Of a DNA stretch of 31,636 bases, positions 2,489 through 28,287 are shown one piece after another. The notes beneath the pieces are model-generated. The model saw only the letters and a program-made list of their open reading frames with translations, did no database searches and was not told the DNA's origin. The position numbers and the translations under genes were made by a program. The DNA comes from a bacterium (GTDB lineage: Bacteria > Zhuqueibacterota > Zhuqueibacteria > Oceanimicrobiales > Oceanimicrobiaceae): assembly GCA_046757165.1 (NCBI GenBank), contig JBHHXT010000039.1, forward strand, positions 1-31,636, given 5' to 3'. How positions within the stretch are numbered: position 1 is the stretch's first letter; each line of letters starts with the position of its first letter.

Positions 2489-5400
2489 ATGAAAACTTTC
2501 GTTCGTATTTTGGCGATTGTTTTGCCCCTCGTGGGCTGTGCCGCGTCTGGCTTCGGTCAGCCGATCGCGAGATTTACCGCGAATCCGTTGCAGGGCGATG
2601 CCCCGCTGACGGTGCAATTCAACAATCGCTCGCAAGGCGAGATTACCAGCAATGCCTGGGTGTTCGGAGATGGCCAGACGAGCAATGCCAGAAACCCGGA
2701 GCATACCTACACGGTTCCAGGGGTCTATACGGTCAAGCTGACGGTCACCGGCCCGGGCGGCAGCGACACCAAGGAGCGAGCTGACTACATCACCGTCACC
2801 GGGCAAGCGCTCAATCGGCCGCGGGATTTGACCGCGCAAGTCGCGGACAATGCCGTCGCGCTGCAGTGGATGAAGCCGGCGACCGGCGACGGCGGCGCGC
2901 CGTGCGACACGGCGCTGGTCGCTTATGATGACGGCAGCTCGGAGGTCGCGCTGACGACGACCACCGACAATATCGAGCTGTGCGTGCGCTTCACACCAGA
3001 CTCTTACCCTGCGACCGTCCTGGGCATGCTCTTCCTGGGCGGCATCTCGACGCCGGACGAGTACGGGCTTTGGGTTTACCTCGATCCTGACGGCCAGGAC
3101 AACGGCCCCGCCGGAGATCCCGTTTTCGCCGGCGCGGTCAATATCACGCAGGTGGGGGCAAATGGCGGGGTTTTTCCCGACCCCATCGTCGTTGAGAGTG
3201 GAGACTTCTACATCAGCCTTGTCAATCTGCCAACCACCAACGGTTATGCCGTCGGCCTGGATAACAACTCGGCCGATGCGGGTCGTTCCTGGCTCAAGCT
3301 GAACCAGCAAGTTCAACGGCTCACCGGCACGCAGTTCGAGGGCAATCTCGTCATCGATGCTGTCGTCGAGCAGTGCAATGCCGGCAGCACAATCATCACC
3401 ACACTCACGCCCGGCAGAAAACGCGAACCGTTGACTGCCAGTCCGGCCTTCGCCGACGTGGCAACCCAGGCCTCGTTGTCAGCGCCGGTCTATGCGCACA
3501 ACACTAACGGTTTTGCCAGGGTAGGCGAGAATCTGCTCGGCGCACGGTTCACCCTCTCGACCACATTTGCAGCCGCAGCCCTGCAAGGATTCCATGTCTA
3601 TCGCTCAACCACCCCCCCGGTGCAAATCGACCCTGCCAACAGGATCCGGCAGAATCAGAGCGCGGACGATACGACGTTTACAGACCCCAATCTCCAGCCC
3701 GGAACTTACTACTACGCTGTGACAGCGCAGTACGACCAGGGGGAGAGCGGGCCGTCCAACGAAATTGTGGCGCAGATTGTGGCCACAACCCTCAATCCAC
3801 CGCGCGACCTGCAGGCGACCGTTGCCGGCAACACCGTGGCGCTGGACTGGCTGGCGCCCGAGAATGGTGGGGGCGGCGGCATGGTGCCCGAAACCGAACC
3901 CAACGATTCGCCGGAGCAGTCAGACCCGTTCGCTTTTGGAGAAACAGCCCAGGGCGCCATCGATCCCGAAGGAGACGGCGACTTCTGGCAGTTCCAGGGT
4001 ACCTCCGGGCAGCGCGCGGTCATCGATGTCGATGCCCAGGTCAACGGCTCTGCACTGGACGCGGTCATCGGCCTCTTTGTCGACCAGGACGACGATGGCG
4101 ACGGGCTGCCGGATATCGTCGATGCCAATGACGATTCCGGCGGCTCGCTCGACTCACGCCTGGACCTCACGTTGCCCAGAACCGACCGCTACTTCATCCT
4201 GATCGTCGACTTCTCCGCCCTCAGGGACAATCTTCCCGATGAAGGCGGACCAGACTATTTCTATGAGATGAGTCTGAGCTCCTCCAGCACAACAACCTCA
4301 GCGGCGAACCCTGCACAGACCAGTCACAACAAGCGCTTCCGTCTTGATGTGGCCACCCTGAAGGCAAAGCTAAGAGCCGTGGCTCAGACAAGATTCGAAG
4401 CACGCGGAGAGCGGAACTCGCACCTGACCCACGCAACCGCGGAACTGCAAAGCTACAATGTCTACCGCGCCACCTCGACGCCGGTGCCGTTGACGCCATC
4501 GAACCGGATCGCGACGGTCGACGCCGGGGTCACCACTTTCGACGATACAGGTTTGTCAGCCGGAACCTACCACTATGCGGTCGCCGCGGTCTATGATGAC
4601 GGGGAGAGCGGGCCGTCCAACGAAGCATCTGCTACCGTGTCCACAAGCGGCGGCACTATCGAAGTTAGGGTAGAAGACACGCAGACGATTGGCAGCGAAT
4701 TCTGGGTTGATATCGCGGTGGCCGGGGTCGCGAATTTCTTCGGGGTCAGTTTTGACCTCGGGTTCACCAACAGCAGTTTTGTCGACGTGGTAACGCCGAC
4801 CAGCAGCAACGTGGTCCCGGGTGACTTTCTGGGCAACGATGTGGTCTTTGCCACCAACGTCGATGAGGCAGCCGGTACAGTCAGCATCGGCATCAGCCGC
4901 AAGAGTGGTCAGGGCGGTGTCGACGGGGGCGGGGTGGTCGCGCGGGTGAAATTTGTCTCCCGGCCGTCGACGCCTCCTGGCACTCAAAGCGAATTCTCGC
5001 TGCGCAGCGTCACTGCGAACGACCCGGATGGACAGCCGATCAGCCTGTCCGCCTCAGGAGCGACCGTCACCTTCACCCCCGGACTCATCGTCTGGCCAGG
5101 CGACACGGACAACAACGGCGTCGTCAACCAGGCCGACGTCCTGCCACTGGGACTGCACTGGGGCAGAACTGGCCCGGCGCGTGACAACGCCTCGACTGCC
5201 TGGGTTGGACAGCCGGCCGAACCCTGGACGCCCGAAACCGCCACCTATGCCGATGCCAACGGCAACGGTGTCGTCAACCAGACCGACGTGTTGCCCATCG
5301 GATTGAACTGGGGCCAGACACATTCGGCGCCAGCGGCACTCGCGAAAGCACACAACCCCACCCTGGCAAAACTGGCGGCGGGTGGCACGGCCATCCTTCG

Positions 5401-6100
5401 CCTGGAGATCGTTGGCAAAGCCAACCCGGGCGAAGCCTTCCAGGTGAAGGTCATCGTTGAAAACGTCAGCGATCTCTTCGGCATTTCGTTCGAGATCGCC
5501 TATTCGCCGACCACATTCATGCAGGCGCAAAAGTCGAATGCAGGCGACTTCCTGGGAAGTGACATTGTCTTCGTTGATAATATCACCGAGGGGTTGATCA
5601 GCATCGGCCTGTCGCGCAAAGCCGGCCAGGGTGGGGTTGACAACTCTGGTGTCGTCGCCATCATCGATGCGGTGATGTCAAATGAGGCAAACATCGAAGA
5701 CCACACCTCGTTGACGTTGCAGAACGTCGCGGCCAATGATCCGAATGGCGTTGCCATCGAATTCGAGGTGCAGAGTGGCGCGGTTATCACCGACGTTCAT
5801 TCCGGCTCAGGCACGCTGCCGGACCGCTTCGTCCTCAATCCGAACTTTCCGAATCCCTTCAATCCGGGCACGCAGATCAGCTACGCATTGCCGCGACAAG
5901 CGTCGGTCCGGATTGACATCTACGACCTGTTGGGCAGGCAGGTTCGGACCCTGGTCGACGAAACCATGCCAGCCGGACGCCATGCCATCGTCTGGGACGG
6001 CCGAGACCAGCACGGCCAGGCGGCAGCGTCCGGGGTGTACATCTATCGCATCCGCGCGGGCGAGTTTGTGGAAAGCCGCAGGATGCTGCTGGTCAAATAG
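2489..6100 (+). CDS. Secreted multidomain surface protein: PKD, two interrupted FN3-like domains, PPC-like domain, cohesin-like/dockerin-like/cohesin-like, FlgD-Ig/T9SS-type CTD
   Basis: AAGGAG RBS; signal peptide; WVFGDG...HTYTVPGVYTVKLTV (PKD); two GTYxYAVxAxYDxGESGPSNE; ETEPND...GAIDPEGDGDFW (PPC-like); duplicated GDTDNNGVVNQADVL/ADANGNGVVNQTDVL; NFPNPFN...WDG...SGVY CTD. Confidence 0.9.
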   Translation: MKTFVRILAIVLPLVGCAASGFGQPIARFTANPLQGDAPLTVQFNNRSQGEITSNAWVFGDGQTSNARNPEHTYTVPGVYTVKLTVTGPGGSDTKERADYITVTGQALNRPRDLTAQVADNAVALQWMKPATGDGGAPCDTALVAYDDGSSEVALTTTTDNIELCVRFTPDSYPATVLGMLFLGGISTPDEYGLWVYLDPDGQDNGPAGDPVFAGAVNITQVGANGGVFPDPIVVESGDFYISLVNLPTTNGYAVGLDNNSADAGRSWLKLNQQVQRLTGTQFEGNLVIDAVVEQCNAGSTIITTLTPGRKREPLTASPAFADVATQASLSAPVYAHNTNGFARVGENLLGARFTLSTTFAAAALQGFHVYRSTTPPVQIDPANRIRQNQSADDTTFTDPNLQPGTYYYAVTAQYDQGESGPSNEIVAQIVATTLNPPRDLQATVAGNTVALDWLAPENGGGGGMVPETEPNDSPEQSDPFAFGETAQGAIDPEGDGDFWQFQGTSGQRAVIDVDAQVNGSALDAVIGLFVDQDDDGDGLPDIVDANDDSGGSLDSRLDLTLPRTDRYFILIVDFSALRDNLPDEGGPDYFYEMSLSSSSTTTSAANPAQTSHNKRFRLDVATLKAKLRAVAQTRFEARGERNSHLTHATAELQSYNVYRATSTPVPLTPSNRIATVDAGVTTFDDTGLSAGTYHYAVAAVYDDGESGPSNEASATVSTSGGTIEVRVEDTQTIGSEFWVDIAVAGVANFFGVSFDLGFTNSSFVDVVTPTSSNVVPGDFLGNDVVFATNVDEAAGTVSIGISRKSGQGGVDGGGVVARVKFVSRPSTPPGTQSEFSLRSVTANDPDGQPISLSASGATVTFTPGLIVWPGDTDNNGVVNQADVLPLGLHWGRTGPARDNASTAWVGQPAEPWTPETATYADANGNGVVNQTDVLPIGLNWGQTHSAPAALAKAHNPTLAKLAAGGTAILRLEIVGKANPGEAFQVKVIVENVSDLFGISFEIAYSPTTFMQAQKSNAGDFLGSDIVFVDNITEGLISIGLSRKAGQGGVDNSGVVAIIDAVMSNEANIEDHTSLTLQNVAANDPNGVAIEFEVQSGAVITDVHSGSGTLPDRFVLNPNFPNPFNPGTQISYALPRQASVRIDIYDLLGRQVRTLVDETMPAGRHAIVWDGRDQHGQAAASGVYIYRIRAGEFVESRRMLLVK

Positions 6101-7153: not shown

Positions 7154-7189
7154 AAAAAATAAGGCCCGGGTCCTGACGGACCCGGGCCT
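7154..7189 (-). terminator. Rho-independent terminator of the minus-strand cluster
   Basis: 12-bp perfect stem AGGCCCGGGTCC/GGACCCGGGCCT (7162-7189) with a 4-nt loop, followed on the minus strand by TATTTTTT, about 65 bp after the stop at 7254. Confidence 0.85.
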
Positions 7190-7253
7190 CTGGCTCAATT
7201 AGTGGGTGGGATAGAGAGGAGGATTCTATAGGACACCCGACGAAACGATGCCG

Positions 7254-9869
7254 CTATTTCATCAGGACCAATTTCATAACTTGCACAAACTGCCCGGCGC
7301 TGAGCTGGTAAAAATAGACGCCGCTTGCAATCGGCCGCTCTGAAGCGTCACGGCCGTTCCAGACCACAGAATGGCGCCCCGGCTGCAATTTCTCATTCAC
7401 CAGTACTTTCACCGTCTGTCCCAGCGCATTGAATATTTTCAGGTTCACAGTCATCGCTTCCCCGGCCGGGACGCCGAATTCTATGGTCGTCGAAGGGTTG
7501 AATGGATTCGGGTAATTCTGCTCGAGCGAGAACGCTTTCGGAACGCGCGAGTCGACATCGTGCTGCACCGGTGGATTGGCCGGGTCGTAGTTCGCCTCGC
7601 GCAACCAGAGCTGCGAAATCATCGCATCGCCCTCGCCATCTATCTTGCTGACTCGAACTTCAATCTCGCCATCGGAATAAATGTCCCCCGGTAGTGGCTG
7701 CCATTCCACACGTTTACGTCCAACCTGTACCTCAAAGTCGTCAGTGAAGCGTGTTTCGTCCACCGTGATACGTTGCTTCAGATAGTCGCCTACCTTATTG
7801 AAAAACTCGGCGCTCATCTCGTATTGCACGGCTGGATTTAGCTCTGTGAAGCGGTAGACCACTTCCGAGGGATGTTTTGCGATGGTTTCATGCGGCTCAG
7901 TGCCCCATGTCTGGCTGCGGACGCCCTGCACCAGGTGAGCGTCGTGGTAGATGTCGCTGCCGCTGTCTTCATGGTAGTACAGCGGCAAATAGAATGCTGG
8001 CGTCTCTTCGAGTGCAGTCATGGTGCCGTAGCTCGACTGCGCTGACAGTTGCAGGCGGTAAAAGCCGGGCCTCACTTGCCAGCCGATGTCATCCCGGCGG
8101 TCCCAGGTAAATCTCTTGACACCAGGCACCAACCAGCCCAGCGGAATTTGCCGGACCGTGTGATCGGTCTGTTCGTCCGTCAGGGCCAGGCTGACTTTGC
8201 CATGGTCGGTCAGCTTCGAGTGCACCGCCAGATGGTCGAGGTCCTGGCTCAACGTAACCTTGAACGCTTGCAGTTGCAATCCAAGCTGATAGCGCTCGGC
8301 ACCAGAGGTTTCAGACCACCTTTCGAGTACAAACGCCTGGTCATAGCCTGACCAGATCTGTCTTGCCTCTGCTGCAATGGAAACCTGACCAAAAATCACG
8401 TGCACGTTGACGGGATCGACACAGCCGTGCCCGGTTCCTGCAACGACTGCCAGCGGCTGCAAATCCGCCGTCAGCTTTTGAACCTCACAATAGCTGCGGT
8501 CCGTGACATAAAGATTCCCCCAATGGTCCACGTCAATCGAGGTGAGCTGGCTTTCTTCCCGGCTCTCGTAATGGTTCTGCCAGTGCAGACCGTCGGCATT
8601 AACGGACAACTCCACAATGCGGCGGTTGCCGGTATCGGCGACATAGAGAGAGTTGGTGCACACGCCATTGAACCGTCCTGGCGTGATAGCTTTCGGGCTG
8701 AAAAAGCCGCCTTCTCCCCTTCCATACTCGCCGAACGTGTAACGCAGCGTCGTGTTTTCTTCCTGCAAAGTAAAGCCTACGATACGATGATTGCCGGTGT
8801 CTGCCACCCAGATGATATCGTCTGTTCCATCGAACGGCGTGCCGGCATCATCCCAGGCGACGTCGTACGGATGGTTCAAAACGGTATTGCCAAAATCGAA
8901 TTGATAGTGCAACTGTGTTTCCTCACCCTTTCCTCGCAGGCTCAGCACAACGATGCGATTGTTGCCCGTGTCTGCGACATAAACTCTCCCGTCTGCATCC
9001 CGGTCGATGCCGTGCGGACGATTCAAATCCCCCGGGCCGCCACGATTGCCATACGCCTTAATCCAGCCGTCATAATCACCGTAGATGATTCGGTTCCACG
9101 CCGGGTCGGTCACAAGCTGCGCGTATCTTGCGGTGAAAAACGGCGCCTCGTTGAGCTGTGTTACTGAGGAGACTAGCACCCCTGCGTAGGGCTTCTGGAA
9201 AAGCGTCCGGCCCAGCCTTTCCTTCGTGACGGCCCGTGTCAGTTTGTCGATGCCGTGGTCGCGGCTTAACGCTTTGTGAATCAGAGTCGGGGCCTTCTGG
9301 CTGCTCTTCTCGCTATAGAGTTCAAAGGTGTCATCGCTGAAATCAGATTGCGATGCAGCGCTGGTGACGCTGTCAAAAGCATTCAGACTGGCAAACAGGC
9401 CGCTGGTGCTCTGCAGTTTCCATTGGTTGCGTACGGTTTTGAAGGTCAAAACAATCTCTTTTTCAGAACCTGAAGTCGCAGGAGAAACCTTGGTCACCAC
9501 CACAGCCTGATCGCCTTCAAAAGAAATTTTCTGTGTCCTTAATTCTATATTCGGCATGCTGCGAGCATTTAGTGACTCGAACAAGTCACTTTTCTTAAAA
9601 AAACTTAACTTCCGGTTCCCGGCGAGATGGGTCAGGGCCCGCGGCTCATCAAATTCCTCAGCCAGGACCGCCCGAAACATCTGGAGGTTGCCGGTCCGTA
9701 GAGCTTGCCGCACCTGATCGATCGCTAGCTGGAGCAGCCCGGGCTCATCGATCTTAGCCTGAAACAAGCCAAGCGCCTCGGGTTTGGATTTCTTGAAGGA
9801 TAAGAACCCGAATGCGGTCAGGGATAGGCAGCAGGCGATAAGGAACCCGGAAGTTGTCTTGCTGTTCAT
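7254..9869 (-). CDS. Secreted NHL-repeat beta-propeller protein with internal FlgD-Ig domain and T9SS-type CTD
   Basis: N-terminal hydrophobic segment; repeated YVADTGNNRI/WVADTGNHRI/YVADTGNRRI; WDRRDDIGWQVRPGFY FlgD-like motif; QNYPNPFN...WNG...SGVY CTD. Confidence 0.9.
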   Translation of the reverse strand: MNSKTTSGFLIACCLSLTAFGFLSFKKSKPEALGLFQAKIDEPGLLQLAIDQVRQALRTGNLQMFRAVLAEEFDEPRALTHLAGNRKLSFFKKSDLFESLNARSMPNIELRTQKISFEGDQAVVVTKVSPATSGSEKEIVLTFKTVRNQWKLQSTSGLFASLNAFDSVTSAASQSDFSDDTFELYSEKSSQKAPTLIHKALSRDHGIDKLTRAVTKERLGRTLFQKPYAGVLVSSVTQLNEAPFFTARYAQLVTDPAWNRIIYGDYDGWIKAYGNRGGPGDLNRPHGIDRDADGRVYVADTGNNRIVVLSLRGKGEETQLHYQFDFGNTVLNHPYDVAWDDAGTPFDGTDDIIWVADTGNHRIVGFTLQEENTTLRYTFGEYGRGEGGFFSPKAITPGRFNGVCTNSLYVADTGNRRIVELSVNADGLHWQNHYESREESQLTSIDVDHWGNLYVTDRSYCEVQKLTADLQPLAVVAGTGHGCVDPVNVHVIFGQVSIAAEARQIWSGYDQAFVLERWSETSGAERYQLGLQLQAFKVTLSQDLDHLAVHSKLTDHGKVSLALTDEQTDHTVRQIPLGWLVPGVKRFTWDRRDDIGWQVRPGFYRLQLSAQSSYGTMTALEETPAFYLPLYYHEDSGSDIYHDAHLVQGVRSQTWGTEPHETIAKHPSEVVYRFTELNPAVQYEMSAEFFNKVGDYLKQRITVDETRFTDDFEVQVGRKRVEWQPLPGDIYSDGEIEVRVSKIDGEGDAMISQLWLREANYDPANPPVQHDVDSRVPKAFSLEQNYPNPFNPSTTIEFGVPAGEAMTVNLKIFNALGQTVKVLVNEKLQPGRHSVVWNGRDASERPIASGVYFYQLSAGQFVQVMKLVLMK

Positions 9870-9887
9870 GTGATGTTCCCCTGCAAG

Positions 9888-10982
9888 TTAGTAGTTCAAA
9901 ACCAGCCCAAGTTGAAAGATGTCGGCGGTAAAATCATTGGAAGTGAAGTACCGTTCGTATTTGGCCTCAAATGTGGCATTGGACATGAAAGAAAGAAAGC
10001 CATCCTGCAACAAATCCGTGAGCTTGTATTCAATCTTGAATCCGAACAGATGCGCGTTGAATTTCTCCAGCTTGTAATCTGAAGTCATGACCTGCTGCAC
10101 CGCCGGGTAGGTGTCGCGAAAGAAGTAAGCCGCACTTTGCTGGTAATAGCGGTAGCGGTAGCGAATGAGCACTTTGTCATTGAAATACTGGTGGTAGAAG
10201 AAGCTCATCGTGTGTGACTGCACCTGCCAGTCGTCACGATAGAAACGGTACTCCATGTGCAGCGAGGTTTGCGTTTTGAAGTAGCGATTGAGCTTCAGAA
10301 AAACCGCGGCGCGCGTCCGCTGCAACGGATGGTTCTCCAGCAAAATCTCGCCGGCGGCGTTCACCGTGCGGTAAGGATTGCTCTGAAAACCGTCTGCATA
10401 GGAGAGGTCCACACCGGCCCGCCCGATCAATTTCGGACTCAACGCCTGCGTCAGCGTGAGATTGGCGCTGTGGGAGCGCTTCGTGTGCGATGTATCAGCT
10501 CCCAGCGGCCGGATGTCATCCCAACCATAACTGTAGGAGGCGGCGACATTCGTGTTTCTCTGATTGAAATCGACGTCCCCTGCAACGGTGACCATTCTGC
10601 CGAGGTAGTCACTTTCACGACTGTAGTAGTAGCTCGTACGAAAACCAGGCAACGCCAGGCCGATATTGAGCTCGTTGCGGTCCTTGGTGAACGACTCGTT
10701 CGCTGGCTCATCTTCGTCAACCGGACGCGAGGCGCCGGTAATACCATCCGTGGGGGAAGGTGTGGCAGCGAGTCCGCGAATCGGCGGGATGATCACGCGA
10801 TCTAGGCTATAGCGCATCAAAAACTCCAGATTGCCCAGCACCCGTTTTGCGATCTCCACCGCTGGCGACTGCACGGTTGTCCCGCTGTTGTCGCTGAACA
10901 GATTGGTACGGAAGCTGACTTTCTCGTCGGCCAGGACAGAGGGAATGAATGCCAGCAAGAGAATACAGGTAACAAGTTTCAA
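9888..10982 (-). CDS. DUF3570-family outer-membrane beta-barrel protein
   Basis: Signal peptide; DGITGAS motif; SRESDY, G.QSNPY, ENHP..R.R, YRFY.DDW and RYRYY.Q.AA.F motifs; aromatic C-terminal strand; adjacent to DUF4266 and TlpA. Confidence 0.85.
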   Translation of the reverse strand: MKLVTCILLLAFIPSVLADEKVSFRTNLFSDNSGTTVQSPAVEIAKRVLGNLEFLMRYSLDRVIIPPIRGLAATPSPTDGITGASRPVDEDEPANESFTKDRNELNIGLALPGFRTSYYYSRESDYLGRMVTVAGDVDFNQRNTNVAASYSYGWDDIRPLGADTSHTKRSHSANLTLTQALSPKLIGRAGVDLSYADGFQSNPYRTVNAAGEILLENHPLQRTRAAVFLKLNRYFKTQTSLHMEYRFYRDDWQVQSHTMSFFYHQYFNDKVLIRYRYRYYQQSAAYFFRDTYPAVQQVMTSDYKLEKFNAHLFGFKIEYKLTDLLQDGFLSFMSNATFEAKYERYFTSNDFTADIFQLGLVLNY

Positions 10983-11067
10983 GAGCTTTGGTTTCCTTTA
11001 GTGACGAATTGAATCCTATACCATTCTACGAGTCATGAGCATCGTCTACCGGGAAGCGGGGATGAAC

Positions 11068-11286
11068 TCAATTGCATGCACAGCCTCCGCCAGCGCCTCC
11101 ATGTCCCCCCATGCTCCCTTCGCGTGTCTCCAGAAAGTGGCGCTCCATGGCGGTCTCCTCGGCCACCACATCAAAGGCCATGATGCGGTCTGCCAGGTTC
11201 TCGCGCTCATACGGCTTGACAGTCGCGCAGGCGCTGAAAACAAAGGGGCACATCGAGCTGACGAGTATCAAAGTCATAAAACGCAT
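11068..11286 (-). CDS. DUF4266-family small lipoprotein
   Basis: FSAC lipobox-like site, VKPYERENLADRIM, and C-terminal REGSMGGHGGAGGGCACN; GAGGAG RBS. Confidence 0.9.
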   Translation of the reverse strand: MRFMTLILVSSMCPFVFSACATVKPYERENLADRIMAFDVVAEETAMERHFLETREGSMGGHGGAGGGCACN

Positions 11287-11291
11287 GTTCT

Positions 11292-11846
11292 CTACTCCTC
11301 GAGGTTTGTTTCATTTTTTCTGGTTGTCCGCTTACTCCTCCCTCTCTTCCTTTTTCCATCCCTGAGCAAGGTGTCGATTTGCTCTCTGTACTCCTGGAAG
11401 TGCTCGGCCTTAAAGCCGGAGTGGAGGTAACGAATCCAGCCGTCCCGGTCGATGATAAAGGTCGTGGGCATGGCTTCGACATCGTATGCAGAAACGACCT
11501 CTTTCTTTTTGTCCCACAGCGACCTGAGTTTGATCGAGTAGGTTTGCAGAAATTCAAGGGCCTTTTGGGGCTGATTGTCGATGTTGACTGCGACGACTTT
11601 CAGCCCGTGTTTGCTGTACTTTTTGCGCAGGAGGTCCAGAAAGGGCAGCTCCTGACGGCAGGGCTTGCACCAGCTCGCCCAGAAGTCGAGCACCACCACG
11701 TGGCCGCGCAATTTGCTCAGCGTCACCTGCTCGCCATCAAATGTGGTCAGAGAAAAATTCGGGGCCTTGCTGCCGACCACCGGCTGCTTGGTCAGCGCTG
11801 GCTGTGCGACCAGCGCAACGAGCAAAACAATTGCGTTTCTCTTCAC
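11292..11846 (-). CDS. TlpA-family exported thiol-disulfide oxidoreductase
   Basis: APNFSL...VVLDFWASWCKPC...MPTTFIIDRDG. The GTG at 11846 (AAGG upstream, signal peptide follows) is preferred over the track start 11918, which overlaps the upstream gene. Confidence 0.9.
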   Translation of the reverse strand: MKRNAIVLLVALVAQPALTKQPVVGSKAPNFSLTTFDGEQVTLSKLRGHVVVLDFWASWCKPCRQELPFLDLLRKKYSKHGLKVVAVNIDNQPQKALEFLQTYSIKLRSLWDKKKEVVSAYDVEAMPTTFIIDRDGWIRYLHSGFKAEHFQEYREQIDTLLRDGKRKRGRSKRTTRKNETNLEE

Positions 11847-11862
11847 GTTCGTGCACCTTGTC

Positions 11863-13797
11863 TTATCTGTATTGGGCCCCGAGGTCAACCCAGTTGACGA
11901 ACTGGCGAATTTCGTCATCTGTGAGCGTATTCTCGCCGTCCGGGTGCGGGCCGGCCCCCTGGAATTCCTCCAGCCCCAGCAGTCTATTGATCAGGCGGCT
12001 CTTACGAGAGCGAGGCGTGCTGCGGAACCGGCTGCCGGCGTTGTCTTCCATCTCGAAGAGGTTCAGGTAAGCCAACGAAAACAGCGGCTCGTTGACATCC
12101 TTTGACAGGTTCAGGTCGAGGTTGCCGCCGGGTGTGGCACCACTGTGGCAGCTCACACATTTCGACGAGATGATCGGCTCGATGGCGAAGCCGAAGCTGA
12201 CATTCTGCCGCCCATCTTGCGGCCCCACCAAATCTGTCGCTGGCAGCGTGGCCGCCATCGGGCTTGAATTACCGGACTCCTGGCCGCGTGGACCGTGGCA
12301 GCCGGTGCACCTCGGGAACGCTTCGCCCGGACGAATCGTAACCCAATTGCGCTTGATGACAATCGCCCGTCCAAGGGAATCCAGCGTATTGAATGAAATC
12401 GGAATGTTGGCGGGCACGCGAACGGAAAAGGAGCCGTCCGGCTGCACCGGCGCCACGCCGATGATGCGTTTCTGCTCAAAGCTGTTCCCGCCGATGGGGC
12501 CGCGGTCGCCTCTTGGCCGTGGCATGCCCTCGATGACCATCACGTGCTTGACTTCCTGTATGGCTTTGTCTGGCCGCGGCTGGCCATCGTTTTGCTGCCG
12601 GAAGTAGACGTCCTGCACGGTAAACACGCCTGAGGGTTGTGCCCGGTCCAGGGTCGACGGAATCACCGGTGGCACGGGCCGGTCGCCGATGACCACCGCG
12701 TCGTACTCGTGGTAATCCGGGTCATTATAGAGCAGGCGTAGGTCACTGCCGTCCGGCTCCAGCGTGTACAACCCGAAGTCTGGCTCGATTTCCTCCACGA
12801 CATTGTCGTTATCATCCGTGAAGGTACCATGTCTCGGCGAAAATGAAACGAGCACCCGGCCATTTGGCAGGGGGTGCGGATATTTGAACACACCCTTTTC
12901 ATAGGGTGGCCCGCTGGTTTCCACCTCCGGCGTGATGTTGATGACATCCGCTTCTGCCATCGGCTCGCCGGCGGCTGCGGTGTGTTTGACGATCACCAGC
13001 GGACCGCGGTCCCCGTTGACCATACCGGAATGCACAGCGATAATGCGCCCATCCGGCAGCTCGCGCGCATGGAAGAACGTGCGCATCCGGTGCGGGCTGA
13101 AAAATGTGAACGTGCCGTGTCCATCCGGGTGAGTGAAGAAGAGCGGGAAGCGGTTGATCGGGCCGTGGTGCTCCCAGCGCGTGTACAAAATCCTGCCGTC
13201 GCGCATGACAATCGGGTCGAAATCGTCGCTGGCGTTGAATGAGATGCATTCGATGTTGCTCCCGTCTGCGTCCATGATGTGCATCACTTCTGCGTCGCGC
13301 TTGTTGTATTCGTCTACAAAGCCGGGACGATTGGAAGTGAATAGAATTTTGCCGTTCGGCAGATAAAGGGGATCGTGGTCGTCATGCTCCGGGTCGCGGG
13401 TCAACTGGCGCAGGCTGGTGGCGTCAACGTTCATTTCATAGATGTTGAAGCTATCGTTGCGATTGCGGCGCATGGAAAAGAGCACACGCAGCCCGTCGTA
13501 TGAAATCTCCGGATCGCAGACATCTCCTTCGGTGAGATTGGTCAAATTGGTCAGCTTTCCACCCGGCGAGGCCGGAATCAGGGAGAACAAATTCCCGCCG
13601 GCGGAGAACCTGTTGAGCGTGCCCTCACGCGTCGCTTTGACAAAGATGATCCCGGATGGCGCGGACTCCTGGATGAGATCATCCGGCACGCCGCCGCTGC
13701 AGCCGGCGGCAAGCAGGGCGGTCAGGCTGAAGGTGAGCAGCCTGTCTTTTGTTTTACCTCTCTTCTCTTCTTTTGTGAGGTCTCGGTGTCTGTCCAT
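11863..13797 (-). CDS. Hydrazine-synthase-alpha-related lipoprotein: TolB/PD40-like propeller, HzsA-like middle domain, two c-type heme motifs
   Basis: AAGGAG RBS; LAAGC lipobox; DPEISYDG..VLFSMR, DPLYLPNGKILFTSNR and DGRILYTRWEH; GVAPVQPDGSF...VPANIP; CTGCH (12295-12309) and CVSCH (12145-12159); WVDLGAQY end. Confidence 0.85.
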   Translation of the reverse strand: MDRHRDLTKEEKRGKTKDRLLTFSLTALLAAGCSGGVPDDLIQESAPSGIIFVKATREGTLNRFSAGGNLFSLIPASPGGKLTNLTNLTEGDVCDPEISYDGLRVLFSMRRNRNDSFNIYEMNVDATSLRQLTRDPEHDDHDPLYLPNGKILFTSNRPGFVDEYNKRDAEVMHIMDADGSNIECISFNASDDFDPIVMRDGRILYTRWEHHGPINRFPLFFTHPDGHGTFTFFSPHRMRTFFHARELPDGRIIAVHSGMVNGDRGPLVIVKHTAAAGEPMAEADVINITPEVETSGPPYEKGVFKYPHPLPNGRVLVSFSPRHGTFTDDNDNVVEEIEPDFGLYTLEPDGSDLRLLYNDPDYHEYDAVVIGDRPVPPVIPSTLDRAQPSGVFTVQDVYFRQQNDGQPRPDKAIQEVKHVMVIEGMPRPRGDRGPIGGNSFEQKRIIGVAPVQPDGSFSVRVPANIPISFNTLDSLGRAIVIKRNWVTIRPGEAFPRCTGCHGPRGQESGNSSPMAATLPATDLVGPQDGRQNVSFGFAIEPIISSKCVSCHSGATPGGNLDLNLSKDVNEPLFSLAYLNLFEMEDNAGSRFRSTPRSRKSRLINRLLGLEEFQGAGPHPDGENTLTDDEIRQFVNWVDLGAQYR

Positions 13798-13908
13798 AGA
13801 TGTTCTCTCCTTGGGCGCTCAGTGCGCTGACAATGAACAACGCTTTATCGATAGTTGACGGCCCGTACTTAACGCCTACGTAAATAAGTGAATAAGCAAG
13901 TATTTCAC

Positions 13909-13962
13909 CGTAGCCATACCCCGTATCCTCGGAGAAGCGACCCACAAGGGGTCGTGGCTACG
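13909..13962. repeat. Degenerate GTAG-type REP doublet / structured element
   Basis: Bounded by CGTAGCCA...TGGCTACG; internal hairpin CGACCC-ACAAG-GGGTCG; arms read GTAGCCATACCCC and (reverse complement) GTAGCCACGACCCC. Confidence 0.55.
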
Positions 13963-13979
13963 TCCTTCCCTGGCCCCGC

Positions 13980-14525
13980 TCACTGTAGAAAAAAAGAGAC
14001 GCCGATGGCAAACTCCAGGTTGTTGTTCAACCAGGAGGTGTCTTCTTGCCCGCTCGAGAAAATGTGGTCGTTGATCTCATAGCGGAGATAGGTGGTTTTT
14101 CCGATCGGGAACTTTGTACCAACTCCCAGACTCACGGTCAGGTTGGATTCGGAATGCTGGCGCGTCACGCCCAGCCCGACGGTGCCATAGGGCACGACGC
14201 GGCCAAGCGGCAGCGAATGCGTCACGCGGCCGCTGTAATAAACGACTGTCGAGCTGCCCTGCTCAGGCGCTGCCAGGCCGACCTTTTGCAAAAAATCCTG
14301 GCCGGCTCTGGCAAAGCCGACGGTTGCCCCCAGGGAGAGCCGCTGGTCAAAATGGTGCTCATACCGGATTCCGAAGTTGAGCGAATTCTGAAATCTGTCC
14401 GCCGCATAAAAGCCGGTGAACGGAAACAGCTCGTGCACTTTCGAGCCGGATTGGGCAAAAGCGCTGCATGCGAGTGGGAGGCTTGCCAGTAGAGCGAATC
14501 CAATTCTTTTCATCTTCAAATCCAA
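13980..14525 (-). CDS. Small outer-membrane beta-barrel protein (OmpA/OMP_b-brl-like); ATG at 14513 is an alternative start
   Basis: Signal peptide ending AFA-Q; alternating beta strands; VPYGTVGLG; C-terminal NNLEFAIGVSFF. Confidence 0.8.
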   Translation of the reverse strand: MDLKMKRIGFALLASLPLACSAFAQSGSKVHELFPFTGFYAADRFQNSLNFGIRYEHHFDQRLSLGATVGFARAGQDFLQKVGLAAPEQGSSTVVYYSGRVTHSLPLGRVVPYGTVGLGVTRQHSESNLTVSLGVGTKFPIGKTTYLRYEINDHIFSSGQEDTSWLNNNLEFAIGVSFFLQ

Positions 14526-14570
14526 ACTCCTGATTTAGAGGCGTGGTGGAGGTTGAGTCCCCCGGCGCCT

Positions 14571-15533
14571 TTAGTCCCAAAACTTCCCGACCAGCAACCC
14601 AATGGTCACCTCCTTGAAGTGTCTCACGCCTTTGCCAACAAAGACGGTGTAGACGGAGGCGTTGACCAGCAGTGAAAGATTCTGCCGAACAAATTTTCTG
14701 GCACCTACGCCATAGTTGACCGCCATGTGGGACACGCTACCGGTGTCGATGCTGCGCTCTGGCACCGTGTTGATGACCCCCATGCCGCCGGTCAGGTAGG
14801 GCAGCCAGGATTTTCTTTGCTGCAAAAGGTACAAGAAATTCGCCATGATCAAGTAGGAATCCGCTGCCTGGCCGAGCGCGTGCTTGAACGAGCCTTCCAA
14901 AGCCAGGCGTGGTGTCTGGTGGAAGACGAACTTCCAGTTGTAGGTGAAATCTGTTTCCAGCACCCCCATTCCGAAGGCGTAGCCAAACCGGCGGTACGTC
15001 GAACCCTCGCTTTGGTAGGACGTTGCAGGCCGGATTTCGTCCGGAGCGCGACCGCCGGAAGCGGGCACGCCACGTCGTGACGTGCCCTTCGCTGCCGCAG
15101 CACCCCGGTGACCGTTCGTGGCCGCATGCAGCTCAGGTTGCCGTGACATTTGCCCGGCCCGGCCCTGGCTGGCCGTGCGCCGCTTTTGGCTTCTGGCACG
15201 CTGCCGCTCGCGGTCTGGCAACTGAACTTGCATCCACCCCTTCTTTCCAGGAGCAAATTCAATCTTGACCCACTTGCTGCGCTGCCCGATGACGCGCACG
15301 GTATCCCCTTTCACGAGAACGGTCAGGGGTGAATCGTCGACCATCGGTAACGAAAAGACTTTGACGCCGTCGAGGGCGATGAGCGCCCGCTGCTGCGCGG
15401 TTGCTTGTGCGGTTGTGCCAACCAACGCGAGCACCGCAAAGCAGGCAAAGAGATAGGCACACCCGCCATCGAAAAGAAGCACGGCGCCAGAGCGGCTTCC
15501 AAGGCACAAGTTGGTTGTCGTTGAATCAGTCAT
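14571..15533 (-). CDS. SH3-like domain + basic linker + outer-membrane beta-barrel protein (start uncertain)
   Basis: LVKGDTVRVIGQRSKWVKIEF...GW SH3b-like motif; Arg/Ala-rich linker; LPYLTGGMG...VNYGVGARKF barrel strands. Confidence 0.75.
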   Translation of the reverse strand: MTDSTTTNLCLGSRSGAVLLFDGGCAYLFACFAVLALVGTTAQATAQQRALIALDGVKVFSLPMVDDSPLTVLVKGDTVRVIGQRSKWVKIEFAPGKKGWMQVQLPDRERQRARSQKRRTASQGRAGQMSRQPELHAATNGHRGAAAAKGTSRRGVPASGGRAPDEIRPATSYQSEGSTYRRFGYAFGMGVLETDFTYNWKFVFHQTPRLALEGSFKHALGQAADSYLIMANFLYLLQQRKSWLPYLTGGMGVINTVPERSIDTGSVSHMAVNYGVGARKFVRQNLSLLVNASVYTVFVGKGVRHFKEVTIGLLVGKFWD

Positions 15534-15587
15534 CGGTCATCGAATCTCATCGCTGTCGTGGTCTGGAGGCCCGATGGGCGTTTATCA

Positions 15588-16214
15588 TTAAAGACCAACC
15601 ACGAATCCCAGTCGAAACTCGCTATTTTGTGCAAGTGCTGGTTCTTCAGTGCGCGATACGCGTGCGCCCAATTTGTACAGCAACCGGTTGAATCCAACCT
15701 TGATCTGAGTCCTTTTCGTCAGGGGCACCAGAAGGCCAGCGCCAAGATTGACCGTCACCAAATGGTCGACCGGCGGCTCAATCACCGTGGTTTGCCCGGC
15801 GCCAATCTCGAGGCGCACGGCATGCGGATCAATGGTCATCACACCTGCGCCCACACTCAGAAAGGGTCGCAATCGCCAGAGAATTGGCCTCAGGCCCCCG
15901 AATCTGAGGTTCAGGCTGACAGGGTAAACCGAATACCTGGCGCTGACTTCGGATGCTGCATGTGAAATCTGCTGTTGGGTGGGAGTAAAAGAAAAAGCAA
16001 GGTTAAGCTGAAGTGCGTCGGTGATACCATAACCTGCGCCCAACCCGAAAGACGGACTTGCGTCGAATGCGAGATGATGATCGAAGAAGAAAACTCCGGC
16101 GGAGCTTTCCAGTTGAAATTTTGGCTTTAAATCCTGGCCCTGGCTGACTGAATAAGACGAAACCAAGGTTGCAATGCCGAGAAGAAGTCTAAAGCCGCCT
16201 GTCCAGCGTTTCAC
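15588..16214 (-). CDS. Small outer-membrane beta-barrel protein
   Basis: Signal peptide; FGLGAGYG, RPFLSVGAG, VNLGAGL and final EFRLGFVVGL strands. Confidence 0.8.
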   Translation of the reverse strand: MKRWTGGFRLLLGIATLVSSYSVSQGQDLKPKFQLESSAGVFFFDHHLAFDASPSFGLGAGYGITDALQLNLAFSFTPTQQQISHAASEVSARYSVYPVSLNLRFGGLRPILWRLRPFLSVGAGVMTIDPHAVRLEIGAGQTTVIEPPVDHLVTVNLGAGLLVPLTKRTQIKVGFNRLLYKLGARVSRTEEPALAQNSEFRLGFVVGL

Positions 16215-16277
16215 AGATGTTTGGATGTTTTCCCAAGGTGCTTAGCTTGTTTATGGCAAAAAGATGTTCCGTCCAAA

Positions 16278-16293
16278 AGCAATAGGTATGCCA
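16278..16293 (-). promoter_or_regulatory. sigma54 (RpoN) -24/-12 promoter
   Basis: Minus strand TGGCATACCTATTGCT has exact GG-N10-GC spacing and matches TGGCA-N6-TTGC(A/T); 64 bp upstream of the 16214 start. Confidence 0.75.
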
Positions 16294-16395: not shown

Positions 16396-16685
16396 TGCCG
16401 TTCAAACCAGGTTGGCCTGATCGCGCCAGGAGCAATGAATTAATTGATGAAAAGAATCGCAATCGGCCGCACAACTCACCGATCGGGGCATGTTCCAAAA
16501 TGGTAAAATACTGCGCATGCGATTAGAAATTGAACATTTTTCCCCTGTTCAGTTGTCGGTAGTCCACAAACCGTCTTTCGATTACGCAATTCCATTTTGC
16601 TACGGCACAATATCTTCAAACTTTGGCTGCAAATCAGTAAAAATGACCATAATTTATTAAAGTTCATCAACATAGAAGAAATGTC

Positions 16686-16931: not shown

Positions 16932-19900
16932 ATGAAACGCATAAGCCAATTACTCATTTCCTTCGCACTTGTGATGTTTGCGGTGGGGGACCTTTACTCG
17001 CAATGGTCAGATAATTCCGCTGAGAATGATACGATCGTGGCCTGGCTGGGCGACCAGATAAGCCCGGCTCTTGTTTCGGATGGAAATCGGGGGGCAATCG
17101 TGGTTTGGCAGGACAAACGGTTCAACAGTTCAGATATTTTTGCCATTCGAATGCACAAATCCGGCAAATTGATGTGGACGCCCGGAGGCGAGCAGGTGGC
17201 ACAGTTTGAAAATGAGCAAATCGCTCCAGTCATCATTGAAGATGGTGACGGAGGCTCATTCATCGCCTGGCAAGACCACCGGAGTTCAGGCTTTGGCAGT
17301 GTTTATGCACAACAGATCGAAAACCTGGACGGACAACCGCAATGGGCCGTGAACGGCATTGAGGTTCGCAGAAGGGGGATCACACCAAATCTGATTCAGG
17401 ATGGCATCCTGGGGATCATCGCTGCTTCTTACGCGCCGGCTCTCGATAAGGATCTTATTGCCGCCCAGAAAGTCAGTCTCGACGCGGACCTCGAGTGGGG
17501 CGCTTCTACGTTGCCGAGTGACTCCGCAAGTGTCGCCAGCACAGAGACGCCTCCCAAACTGGTCTCGGACTTCAACGGCGGCGCCATTTTTGCCTGGGTG
17601 GACATCCGGGGTGGCGTTGACCATGAAATCTACACTGCGCGTCTGGACCAGAGTGGGAGTCGCGCCTGGACGCCGGAAGAAATTCCGTTGGGAACCAGCG
17701 CTACAGAAGGGACCGAGCCCGCGGTTCTTCCCGATGGAGCGGGAGGAATAATCATTGCCTGGATCAGTCCACAATCGCCAGGCTCGACGGACGACCTGAT
17801 CATGGTGCAGAATCTCAATGGAGATGGTGCAAAGCAATGGCCCAGTGAGCCAGGCGTAGTGGTCTCGACCTCCGCCGGCAGCAAAGACAAGGTGAGAATC
17901 ACGCAGGCCGACCAGAACATGTACCTGGTGGTGTGGGAGGATTTGAGCAGCGGTGCAGATAAAGATATCGCTGCGCAGCGCATCGCTTCCGATGGCTCCT
18001 TAGTTCCGCCACTTATTGAGGTGGTCAGCGCCAGCGGCGCACAACGGAACCCAATCGTCCTGGCCAATGGCCTGGGGGAGGTTGTTGTGGCATGGGAAGA
18101 CCATCGAAATAGCACTACGGCGCCGGACATCTACGCACAGCTCGTCGATGCCAGCGGCGGCATCGCCTGGAAAGTGAACGGAGAAGCCGTTTCGACGGCT
18201 CCAGGCAGGCAAGAGAAACCCGCCCTGGCAGCAGACGGCCTGGGGGGAGCGATCATCGTCTGGCAAGACTTTCGCAGCGGCGATTATGACATCTACTCCC
18301 AAAGAATAAGCCAATCAGGGGTACTGGGTGAATTTCGGGCCATCACGATCACCTCGCCGACCCAGTCGCAAGAGTGGGAAATCGGCAGCTCACAACGGAT
18401 CACATGGGACTTTCGAGGCAAGATCGATAGTGTGTCGATTGAGTTATCGCGCAATGGTGGGCAGAATTACTTTGCGCAGGACCTCCTGGCCCGTACAGCA
18501 CCCAACACGGGCAGCTTCGTTGTCGATAGCGTGAGAGGCGACCCGTCACAAAACTGCACCGTTAGAATCAGAGCAGTGGGCGATGAGCATATCGAAAAAG
18601 TCAGCTCCGTCTTCACCATCTCCCCCGCGACCCCCCCGGCCATCGATCCCAATCCGGTGCTGCAGGCCAGCTTGAACGATTCTGTGACCATCTCAGCCAC
18701 CAGCACCGATTTGAGTGGCGTGAGCTCGGTCAGTCTCAACTATCGTCGCGGCGGGGCCCGGCAGTTTGCGAGCGTCGCCATGCAGCGCGGCGAGGATGAC
18801 CGATTCACCGGAGCCATCCCCCCCACGGCCGTAACAAACAGAGGCCTGGAATACTATGTCGCGAGCACAGACAGTATCGGAAACTCGAGCACATCTGACA
18901 CCTTTTTTGTTGCGGTCACCTTTGATGCTGGCGTCGAAACGTGGGACATTGCTGCCGGGTCGTCGCAGTCCTCCTACCATATGATTTCGGCGCCCAACCA
19001 GCTCGACCAGACCCTGGCAGATTCGATTTTTGCTCTCTCCGGGTTTGGCGCCTACGACACCACGAGCTGGCGCTTGTTTCAGTTTCGAGATCCCGTCAAC
19101 GTCGAGCGCGATTCGCTCAACGCCGCCTCCTTCACCTTTGATCCGGGCACGGCCTACTGGATCATTTCCGCCCGGCAGCGTACCATCGACTTTGGTGCCG
19201 GGATTTCTATCCTGACGGATAGCGACTATGAAATCACGCTGCACCCAGGCTGGAATCAGGTGGGCAACCCCTTTGCTTTTACCATCGATTGGGACGATAT
19301 TCTGGCTGCCAGCGGCAATCCCAGGATCAGCAGACCCTCGACTTTCCGCGGCTCGTATCTCAACCCGCCAACGCTCGAGCCGTTCGAAGGATACTTTGTC
19401 TACCGGTTCGGCGCCACAGATACCACCCTGGTTTTTCCGCCGATGGAATTTGCGGAACCAGTCGCCCTTGCCAAAAGCGGCACGGAGTCGGACTGGCAAC
19501 TTCAAATCACGGCGACCTGCGAGCAGGCGCGAGATGATTTCAATTTTCTCGGCATCGATCAGCGGGCCGCTCTTGAATGGGACCGTCTGGACCAACCAGA
19601 ACCGCCGCCGATCGGCGAGTTTGTCTCGGTCTATTTTCCGCAACACGACTGGCGCCGCTTCGCCTCGGATTATACCAGCGATTACAGACCGGAGCTGGGC
19701 GAGGGGCAGATCTGGCGCTTGAACGTGCGCACAAACATCGCTGGCTCGCAGGTCAAATTGACCTTTTCAGGCCTATCCGCTCTGCCGGAGGATCTGAGCG
19801 TCGTGCTGCTCGACCAGACCTTGAGCGTTCAGCAAGATTTGCGTCAGAACCCGGAATATCTTTTTGCTACAGGCAGCCGTGGGGCCACCAAATCATTGCT

Positions 19901-20243
19901 CCTGCTGGTCGGTGAGCAGGGGTTCTTGGCAGACCAGACTTCCGGTCTTGGTCTCGTGCCGACTGATTTTCAGGTGTCGCAGAATTTTCCGAATCCGTTC
20001 AACCCGTCGACTTCCATCCGTTTTGGTCTGCCGAACGACGAAAACGTGACGGTCAGAATTTATGATCTGCTCGGACGCGAAGTCAAAACGCTCATCAATG
20101 ACGAGCCACACAGCGCTGGATTCCATGTCGTGACCTGGACCGGCCAGAACAAGAACGGCCGCGCTGTTGCCAGTGGTCTTTATATTTACCGGATCACCGC
20201 CGGGGCGTTCTCGCAAACGCGCAAAATGCTCCTGGTGAAATAA
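16932..20243 (+). CDS. Secreted repeat (probable beta-propeller) protein with Ig-like domains and FlgD-Ig/T9SS-type CTD
   Basis: Signal peptide ending YS-Q; about eight DGxGGAIIxWxDxR...DIYAQR repeats in aa ~45-460; QNFPNPFN...WTG...SGLY CTD. Confidence 0.9.
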   Translation: MKRISQLLISFALVMFAVGDLYSQWSDNSAENDTIVAWLGDQISPALVSDGNRGAIVVWQDKRFNSSDIFAIRMHKSGKLMWTPGGEQVAQFENEQIAPVIIEDGDGGSFIAWQDHRSSGFGSVYAQQIENLDGQPQWAVNGIEVRRRGITPNLIQDGILGIIAASYAPALDKDLIAAQKVSLDADLEWGASTLPSDSASVASTETPPKLVSDFNGGAIFAWVDIRGGVDHEIYTARLDQSGSRAWTPEEIPLGTSATEGTEPAVLPDGAGGIIIAWISPQSPGSTDDLIMVQNLNGDGAKQWPSEPGVVVSTSAGSKDKVRITQADQNMYLVVWEDLSSGADKDIAAQRIASDGSLVPPLIEVVSASGAQRNPIVLANGLGEVVVAWEDHRNSTTAPDIYAQLVDASGGIAWKVNGEAVSTAPGRQEKPALAADGLGGAIIVWQDFRSGDYDIYSQRISQSGVLGEFRAITITSPTQSQEWEIGSSQRITWDFRGKIDSVSIELSRNGGQNYFAQDLLARTAPNTGSFVVDSVRGDPSQNCTVRIRAVGDEHIEKVSSVFTISPATPPAIDPNPVLQASLNDSVTISATSTDLSGVSSVSLNYRRGGARQFASVAMQRGEDDRFTGAIPPTAVTNRGLEYYVASTDSIGNSSTSDTFFVAVTFDAGVETWDIAAGSSQSSYHMISAPNQLDQTLADSIFALSGFGAYDTTSWRLFQFRDPVNVERDSLNAASFTFDPGTAYWIISARQRTIDFGAGISILTDSDYEITLHPGWNQVGNPFAFTIDWDDILAASGNPRISRPSTFRGSYLNPPTLEPFEGYFVYRFGATDTTLVFPPMEFAEPVALAKSGTESDWQLQITATCEQARDDFNFLGIDQRAALEWDRLDQPEPPPIGEFVSVYFPQHDWRRFASDYTSDYRPELGEGQIWRLNVRTNIAGSQVKLTFSGLSALPEDLSVVLLDQTLSVQQDLRQNPEYLFATGSRGATKSLLLLVGEQGFLADQTSGLGLVPTDFQVSQNFPNPFNPSTSIRFGLPNDENVTVRIYDLLGREVKTLINDEPHSAGFHVVTWTGQNKNGRAVASGLYIYRITAGAFSQTRKMLLVK

Positions 20244-24868: not shown

Positions 24869-25139
24869 GATAGGCCTCTCTTTCAAGGGAATAGTGAGCT
24901 CGCGTTAAGAATGTGATGCGTCCTGAGCCGTCCCGGTCCAGAAGTCTTGGTTTGGGGTTTGTCTAGCAGACGTGTTCGGTCTGTCCTTCTCCGCCGGGTG
25001 GCGTGTGGCAAGTCTACCGACGCGCCAACCCAAAACACGGCGAGTCCCTCCCGCAGCCGTTTGCGCTTGTGTCCACTGTCGATGGGAGATGTGATGGTGA
25101 CTTTATTTGCGCAGGGAGTCGCGGCAAGCTGTTTGCATG

Positions 25140-27990: not shown

Positions 27991-27991
27991 C

Positions 27992-28267: not shown

Positions 28268-28287
28268 CGGAGCACAGGAGAAAAGCG

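Follow-up and report, generated by a model that had tools for sequence, protein, structure and literature searches.

A conserved eight-gene envelope operon joining an HzsA-like di-haem lipoprotein to a DUF3570 module, with a possible role in electron transfer

Genes of the operon

The DNA analysed here, referred to as the window, comprises positions 1 to 31,636 of contig JBHHXT010000039.1 (GenBank assembly GCA_046757165.1) from a bacterium of the family Oceanimicrobiaceae, phylum Zhuqueibacterota. Between positions 7254 and 16293 it contains a putative operon in which a lipoprotein resembling the alpha subunit of hydrazine synthase (HzsA) is encoded together with a TlpA-like thioredoxin, a DUF4266 lipoprotein, a DUF3570 barrel, three small beta-barrels and an NHL propeller protein. 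These eight genes are a conserved, co-inherited cell-envelope unit. Re-reading the open reading frames (ORFs) from the sequence bore out the eight co-oriented minus-strand genes of a first-pass annotation, and the intergenic gaps (54, 45, 182, 16, 5, 85 and 18 bp from 5' to 3' in the operon) match the values given there. The sigma54-type site at the front of the operon and the terminator-like hairpin at its end, both on the same strand as the genes, are present in the sequence, and the redox motifs lie where that annotation had placed them: two CxxCH (497, 547), WCKPC (C60/C63), a C-terminal CACN (C69/C71) and DGITGAS (79-85). All products are predicted to be exported, with export signals judged by eye, and its count of three beta-barrels becomes four, DUF3570 being one by structure model. 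The HMM annotation that it had proposed, run against Pfam and NCBIfam, assigned the HZS_alpha, DUF4266, DUF3570, thioredoxin and NHL families.

The HzsA-like lipoprotein (644 amino acids (aa), positions 11863-13797) matches HZS_alpha (PF18582) with 70.8 bits and is composed of a lipobox (LAAG-C33), a beta-propeller, the HZS_alpha middle domain with one CxxCH (497-501) and a C-terminal cytochrome domain with the other (547-551). Comparison of its structure model (predicted local distance difference test score, pLDDT, 91; predicted template modelling score, pTM, 0.90) with 5c2v gave a Foldseek E of 2.7e-34 at TMq 0.80, and a Z of 35.0 with a root-mean-square deviation of 2.7 over 556 residues; the three-domain fold with two haem c motifs of hydrazine synthase alpha is present. 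All 100 aligned relatives share Cys33, both CxxCH motifs, His210, His236, Arg504 and His618, and His243 is near-invariant. A profile alignment to 5c2v, to which an offset of 27 residues was applied for hydrazine synthase numbering, revealed no counterpart of Tyr591: at this position (His+4) the four commonest residues, G, A, V and R, account for 93 of 100 relatives, and the window has Gly. In the same alignment the position of the zinc ligand Cys303, which not all anammox bacteria keep, is occupied by the invariant His236, and His618 falls within a few residues of the His772 position. We infer that haem II, of bis-His type, is the electron-entry site and that haem I is the active site. Genes of the CCP/MauG family exist on other contigs of the same genome.

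Downstream of the haem gene lie two thiol proteins. The first (11292-11846) is a TlpA/ResA-like thioredoxin with WCKPC and a signal peptide, predicted to be periplasmic (Redoxin/AhpC-TSA, 109.6 bits); its start, a GTG at 11846, was chosen by the signal peptide and homologues, the longest ORF starting at 11918. Its best NCBIfam match is ResA (127.7 bits, below the cut-off of 170), and the WCxxC motif was found in all 75 TlpA neighbours scored. The second (11068-11286) is a small DUF4266 lipoprotein (PF14086, 68.8 bits) with the lipobox FSA-C20 and the C-terminus GGGCACN.

The DUF3570 protein (9888-10982; PF12094, 151 bits) possesses one ApbE motif, DGITGAS (79-85), which fits the full motif D-x-x-[S/T]-G-A-[S/T] (PMC12052999; here and below, literature statements refer to the available portions of the cited papers), and it is predicted from this motif to carry a covalent flavin. 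Covalent FMN has been shown only for the DUF3570 protein of Chlorobium luteolum, which is flavinylated at two ApbE-type sites (PMC8238504). The model (pLDDT 90) is a barrel of 16 strands and 346 residues in which the motif sits in the long loop that joins strand 3 to strand 4; within this loop, pLDDT falls below 50 at residues 53-65 (mature numbering). No solved relative was found by sequence, and the best fold matches are the barrels of PelB, BcsC and PgaA (Z 18-19.5), a shared fold that shows no function in itself. Coming after strand 3, the motif loop should, going by the model, face outside, provided that the last strand has its end on the periplasmic side, as is usual in barrels.

Three small outer-membrane barrels precede the haem gene. 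Barrel 1 (208 aa, 15588-16214; OMP_b-brl, PF13505, 33.2 bits, above cut-off) is the least conserved gene of the operon and has weak sub-cut-off matches to TIGR04565 and CglE/GltH. It is followed by a 320-aa protein (14571-15533) combining an SH3 domain (SH3_3, 29 bits), a basic linker and a small barrel weakly matching TIGR04565, and by barrel 3 (181 aa, 13980-14525), which matches TIGR04565 with 64.5 bits (cut-off 60) as well as PF13505. In hhalign comparisons with barrel 3, barrel 1 reached a probability of 96% and the SH3-barrel 87%, so that the three are related; no solved relative of barrel 3 was found by sequence. At the other end of the operon, the 871-aa NHL beta-propeller protein (7254-9869) bears Ig-like domains (FlgD_ig), an N-terminal signal recognised by eye and a type A type IX secretion system (T9SS) tail (TIGR04183, 33.7 bits, cut-off 23), from which it is predicted to be a T9SS substrate. 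SprA and PorV are above cut-off in the genome; together with the tail, this indicates that at least one operon product likely works outside. Relatives of the NHL protein share no conserved Cys, His or cofactor motif, and its matches among solved structures are generic propellers. A core role was considered and rejected, as the gene is also found away from the module; the NHL protein is an accessory member.

Conservation, the haem-less module and control of the operon

Is this combination peculiar to one contig, or is it maintained across lineages? The first-pass annotation had left this point to a neighbourhood search, and synteny of HzsA-like and DUF3570 genes does recur in other genomes. In a phylum survey of 167 genomes, the HzsA-like subfamily (E <1e-260) was found in 27 and the DUF3570 subfamily (E <1e-70) in 27, with both in 26; in 23 of these 26 they share a contig, and in the other three they lie on separate short contigs or contig ends. 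Six further genomes carry distant HzsA-like matches only. Related genomes are not independent, and these co-occurrence figures are therefore counts and not a test. Among 60 relatives, 16 possess a full-length close HzsA-like gene, which has DUF3570 beside it in 15 of the 16 stretches; in the sixteenth the contig breaks off, and the rest of the genes lie on a different contig. All eight genes stand in the window's order in 6 of these 16 loci (tblastn), 4 are cut by contig ends, and 5 show a second order: barrels, DUF3570, NHL, HzsA-like, TlpA, DUF4266. The unit thus survives a change of gene order between lineages. In one genome (G002, contig C17, locus L164), the six genes between barrel 1 and NHL have been deleted as a block, so that the NHL gene directly follows the sigma54 motif and a barrel 1 remnant of 87 codons from its start. 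Pairwise-identity correlations between operon genes (0.77-0.87) reflect shared descent and were given no weight.

The unit extends to more distant relatives. From metagenomes, the best 80 of 305 loci were used, near-duplicates included: 28 near loci and 52 of a distant clade with 42-48% identity, a level at which proteins (not the loci themselves) are named Eisenbacteria and Latescibacterota. In distant-clade loci with enough flanking DNA, DUF3570 was present in 24 of 25, DUF4266 in 32 of 33, TlpA in 31 of 33 and NHL in 17 of 18, the last count excluding a match in locus L106 to an unrelated upstream protein; in L106 the haem gene stands alone. A genome-collection scan with a single protein revealed 4 near loci. 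Plasmid searches gave no match to DUF3570 queries and 7 records for HzsA-like queries, 6 of them annotated SUMF1-type genes of Bacteroidota with a different architecture, and a search of viral contigs gave no matches.

Several observations concern the surroundings of the haem gene in other loci. In 42 of the 52 distant-clade loci, the space between apbE and the first barrel holds the gene for a small lipoprotein with CX4-5CH (e.g., L095:179-631 and L127:8536-9168). This protein has no Pfam match, resembles the haem II domain weakly (E 0.004, probability 8%) and has no match in the window's genome. Past the NHL gene, 11-15 distant-clade loci retain genes for a lipoprotein, two barrels, a PepSY-like protein, a coiled protein and a long TPR protein (e.g., L127:15502-21883 and L115:15549-21918). 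The HzsA-like family also has a different context (L055:9034-15623), in which a more distant HzsA-like gene with one CxxCH adjoins a gene for a 966-aa protein with 10 CxxCH, without DUF3570.

The same genome also encodes the module without haem. On another contig (G000:C121, L057:72-4367) lie tlpA, DUF4266 ending in CGC, DUF3570 with two motifs, a NusG_II protein gene and apbE; this module has a sigma54 motif of its own at 4367, and a divergent DUF2271 gene occupies 4802-5662. Among 21 such paralogous stretches (5-14 kb), DUF3570 has two or more motifs in 20 and apbE is adjacent in 13, and none contains an HzsA-like gene. A sigma54 motif lies within 600 bp of tlpA in 11 of 18 haem-less loci with tlpA (L144-L163 and L057), against a background of 3%. 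In contrast, haem-linked DUF3570 has a single motif in 47 of 50 cases (two with none, one with two, by a relaxed pattern), and it is the first of the two motifs of the haem-less form that has been lost; the C-A-C of haem-linked DUF4266 is invariant in 53 of 53, where haem-less paralogues have C-G-C. The two DUF3570 groups also separate in a quick tree (SH-aLRT 99).

What, then, does the haem protein replace? According to the first-pass annotation it stands in for ApbE, an idea that was rejected on the wider sample: where 3 kb or more of upstream DNA is present, 16 of 25 distant-clade loci have apbE together with the haem gene. Whatever the flank length, apbE stands ahead of the haem gene in 21 of the 52 distant-clade loci and in none of the 28 near loci. 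The reported lack of apbE holds for the locus but not for the genome, which carries two copies elsewhere, one in an NQR-like cluster (read from ORF starts) and one in the plain haem-less module. The gene is present in 27 of 27 genomes tested, in one near genome (G004) about 6.7 kb from the cluster. It follows that apbE accompanies the haem gene instead of being displaced by it, and that ApbE would act in trans in the near lineage; what haem appears to have replaced is the second flavin.

The sigma54-type -24/-12 motif, TGGCATACCTATTGCT, occupies positions 16278-16293, and rpoN is present in the genome. By itself the motif is weak (32 such sites in the genome versus 18 expected); it recurs, however, ahead of the operon in all 8 same-family genomes for which upstream DNA was available, and TGGCA and TTGC are invariant in 12 aligned upstream regions of 31% mean identity, regions that were chosen for carrying the motif. 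Sigma54 control as a general trait was rejected: the strict motif did not accompany the cluster in any of 17 other near loci or 10 distant loci, and three weak variants of it were found. The promoter and gene order described in the first-pass annotation hold for the window's lineage but not for the system as a whole. An imperfect inverted repeat, TTGCG-N4-CGAAAG, at 16575-16590 on the minus strand is a candidate activator-binding site judging by the upstream alignment, although it could also serve the divergent gene. Its pattern matches 11 of 13 upstream regions versus 0.8 expected in shuffles, a circular figure in that the pattern was derived from the same sequences; its distance upstream of the sigma54 site is 170-177 bp in 7 of the 13 regions and 296 bp in the window. 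The terminator-like hairpin (7161-7190; 13 pairs, 10 of them G-C, followed by a T run) begins 64 bp past the last stop and is the strongest of 23 terminator-type sites in 14 kb. Within the operon, the 182-bp gap (13798-13979) opens with a G+C-rich stem-loop, which might serve for processing or attenuation where the barrel genes give way to the haem gene.

Beyond the divergent side of the operon, a gene for a T9SS-tailed 1103-aa propeller protein (16932-20243) is followed by a trypsin-like gene (20289-21173). Within the same family both genes remain neighbours of the operon, often separated by an FG-GAP gene that is missing from the window. Farther along lie a T9SS-tailed homologue of galactose oxidase/GlxA-like radical copper oxidases (23057-24886; 267.6 bits, below the cut-off of 800) and, at 26650-30458, a row of genes for phosphoglucosamine mutase (archaeal-type model above cut-off), a EutN/CcmL microcompartment vertex protein, DeoC aldolase and pyrimidine nucleoside phosphorylase.

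A possible outward relay and its rivals

These data raise the question of what the unit does. The reading that we favour, tentatively and at slightly less than an even chance, is an outward transfer of electrons that starts at periplasmic thiols, crosses a flavin-bearing barrel and ends at a lipoprotein enzyme with two haems. We infer every contact, membrane side, flow direction and enzyme role in this relay. DsbD, which like the cytochrome c assembly proteins is encoded in the window's genome, would serve as the donor that reduces TlpA, and TlpA would in turn reduce the CAC tail of the DUF4266 lipoprotein. ApbE, acting in trans, would attach flavin mononucleotide (FMN) to Ser85 in the outward loop of the DUF3570 barrel, where the CAC tail could reach it. 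From the FMN, electrons would move one at a time to haem II (bis-His type) of the HzsA-like lipoprotein and then to haem I, whose pocket, with its Tyr lost and an invariant His and Arg, may be the active site for a small outside substrate. In this scheme, the haems would substitute for the second flavin of the haem-less module. By analogy with GltA/B/H and CglB, the three small barrels might hold the lipoprotein at the surface, with the T9SS-tailed NHL propeller as a presumably dispensable surface partner. In favour of a relay are the co-occurrence of the HzsA-like and DUF3570 subfamilies across gene orders and into the distant clade, the invariance of the redox motifs, the ApbE motif of DUF3570 in a loop predicted to face outside, the contrast between one motif with haem and two without, and the presence in the genome of ApbE, DsbD, cytochrome c assembly, SprA and PorV genes.

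Several points weigh against an outward relay of this kind. DsbD, the only inner-membrane donor found, is encoded elsewhere in the genome, and dsbD was seen beside none of the haem-linked loci and beside two haem-less loci (L149 and L151). The flavin loop, the least confident part of the DUF3570 model, might instead be folded into the barrel lumen. In the distant clade the motif G is replaced by T or S (DAITTAS), and a change of this Gly lowered flavinylation in another protein (PMC12052999). The separation of the two DUF3570 groups in the tree is partly built in, as the groups were picked by score against a single alignment, and the link to the Glt barrels consists of one family match above cut-off (TIGR04565) and a weak CglE match. 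The unit is also not uniform: L047, otherwise whole, has no TlpA match by tblastn, among the five loci of the second gene order the small barrels are non-adjacent in L050 and the NHL gene in L053, the NHL gene is also non-adjacent in L171, and in several genomes the NHL gene stands without the module.

Could the unit instead take up a ligand? On this account, the flavin loop reduces an outside ligand such as a metal complex, the barrel admits it, the CxC tail binds or gates it, and the periplasmic haem lipoprotein acts on it. The DUF3570 barrel is of porin size without a plug domain of its own, 25 DUF3570 clusters carry the iron transporter VIT1 (PMC8238504), and the invariant His210 and His236 and near-invariant His243 could bind metal. 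However, no transporter, TonB or metal-regulator gene recurs among the neighbourhood families listed, and the upstream motif is of the sigma54 type; we consider redox-coupled uptake an improbable explanation. Somewhat less probable still is a flow in the opposite direction, in which the haem protein oxidises reduced sulfur, nitrogen or metal species outside and electrons pass inward via FMN and thiols. This would agree with hydrazine synthase, in which haem I is the active site and haem II a bis-His site (PMC12758564), and with the additional CX4-5CH haem-motif lipoprotein of the distant clade. No quinone-linked acceptor gene, however, recurs among the loci read. An inward path would also run against the direction of TlpA/ResA thioredoxins and DsbD, which is outward, and against the usual order of potentials, in which c-type haems are higher than thiols.

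Another important question is whether electrons pass between the thiol/flavin barrel and the haem enzyme at all, or whether these are two units under one promoter, with TlpA mainly reducing CxxCH for haem attachment. The ResA match of TlpA, the position of tlpA after the haem gene in both gene orders, the occurrence of the TlpA-DUF4266-DUF3570 trio without a haem gene in all 21 paralogous stretches and the solitary haem gene of L106 all fit such a separation. Yet haem maturation cannot be the sole task of TlpA, which, like DUF4266, belongs to the haem-less module too. The haem-linked DUF3570 and DUF4266 are of a different kind from their paralogues (one motif and CAC versus two motifs and CGC), the window's genome keeps both modules, and the linkage holds across rearrangements and at 42-48% identity. 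We consider two separate units about as unlikely as an inward flow. The idea of a true hydrazine synthase alpha subunit, or part of one, draws on the whole-length fold and sequence match to 5c2v and is very improbable: the protein scores 103.7 bits against the NCBIfam equivalog NF052339, whose cut-off is 800, it is a lipoprotein, and Pfam and NCBIfam revealed no beta or gamma hydrazine synthase gene among the eight operon genes. Tyr591 is lost and His replaces Cys303, and the HzsA-like protein is therefore not a hydrazine synthase.

Within the outward relay, a more specific arrangement can be imagined, although we think it on the whole unlikely: a distinct conduit across the outer membrane without a multihaem wire, in which the Cys-tailed lipoprotein would thread the 16-strand barrel, reduce the flavin of the outer loop and feed a surface haem enzyme of hydrazine synthase fold with a new active site lined by His and Arg.

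Relation to described systems and implications

Clusters of ApbE, DUF3570, DUF4266 and thioredoxin-like genes have been described as "DsbD systems" (Meheust et al. 2021, PMC8238504), and the window resembles them in the CxxC of TlpA, the C-terminal CxC of DUF4266, a DUF3570 with an ApbE motif, the same gene order, and DsbD and ApbE in the genome. It differs in its single flavinylation motif, CAC instead of CGC and the lack of an adjacent apbE, and it adds the HzsA-like di-haem lipoprotein, the three small barrels and the T9SS-tailed NHL protein. The available text of PMC8238504, which notes flavin/cytochrome redundancy in general, names none of these added partners and does not call DUF3570 a barrel, while its supplementary gene-cluster table may list neighbours. 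The TlpA-DUF4266-DUF3570 trio has also been noted beside JDVT-CTERM proteins (10.1101/2023.06.07.544157). In line with the first-pass annotation, which knew of no described system of this composition, no paper joining HzsA-like proteins with DUF3570 was found in a search that left most subscription papers outside. The operon is apparently an unpublished extension of a published, functionally unexplained DUF3570 module.

Porin-cytochrome conduits such as MtrAB place a multihaem cytochrome in a large barrel. The operon shares with MtrAB an outer-membrane barrel with redox partners predicted on both sides, and chain B of 6r2q matches the DUF3570 model with a Z of 14.1. Unlike the barrel of MtrAB, which has 649 residues, that of DUF3570 has 16 strands and 346 residues, and thiols and a covalent flavin would take the place of a multihaem wire; the whole operon has only two CxxCH, both in the propeller protein of 612 residues (mature), and the multihaem feature of MtrAB is absent. 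As in the Glt outer-membrane platform of Myxococcus, in which GltA/GltB/GltH hold the surface lipoprotein CglB (PMC9946355), three related small barrels are encoded with a lipoprotein. The likeness to CglE/GltH models is weak: one small barrel scores 29.8 bits against the CglE model (cut-off 70), and it is another that exceeds the cut-off of TIGR04565. The locus, unlike the Glt platform, has no motility genes, and a platform role would be by analogy only.

With the alpha subunit of hydrazine synthase (5c2v), the HzsA-like protein shares the propeller, middle and cytochrome domains, both CxxCH motifs and the distal His for haem II. Its lack of Tyr591 and Cys303 agrees with the non-anammox HzsA homologues of clades I-IV, of which clade I also lacks His772 (PMC12758564), and KSB1 hzs-like genes have been judged unlikely to encode hydrazine synthase (PMC10732223). 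In contrast to clade I, the window protein keeps an invariant His near the His772 position. It further differs from the published homologues in its His at the Cys303 position, in being a lipoprotein and in its neighbours, DUF3570, DUF4266, TlpA and barrels, instead of the fused beta-gamma subunit and FG-GAP genes reported there; "DUF" is absent from the available text of PMC12758564.

The operon ties together two families without a known job, the DUF3570 flavinylation clusters and the non-anammox HzsA-like proteins; for the latter, the literature leaves open both what they catalyse and how they relate to the origin of hydrazine synthase (PMC12758564, PMC10732223). Although the hosts found here are uncultured, the presence in one genome of a two-flavin haem-less module and a one-flavin di-haem module, both with sigma54 motifs, offers a direct test of flavin/haem interchange. 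If the unlikelier reading as a conduit without a multihaem wire were true, it would give a function to the widespread non-anammox HzsA family and would show the kind of enzyme from which the alpha subunit of hydrazine synthase was recruited.

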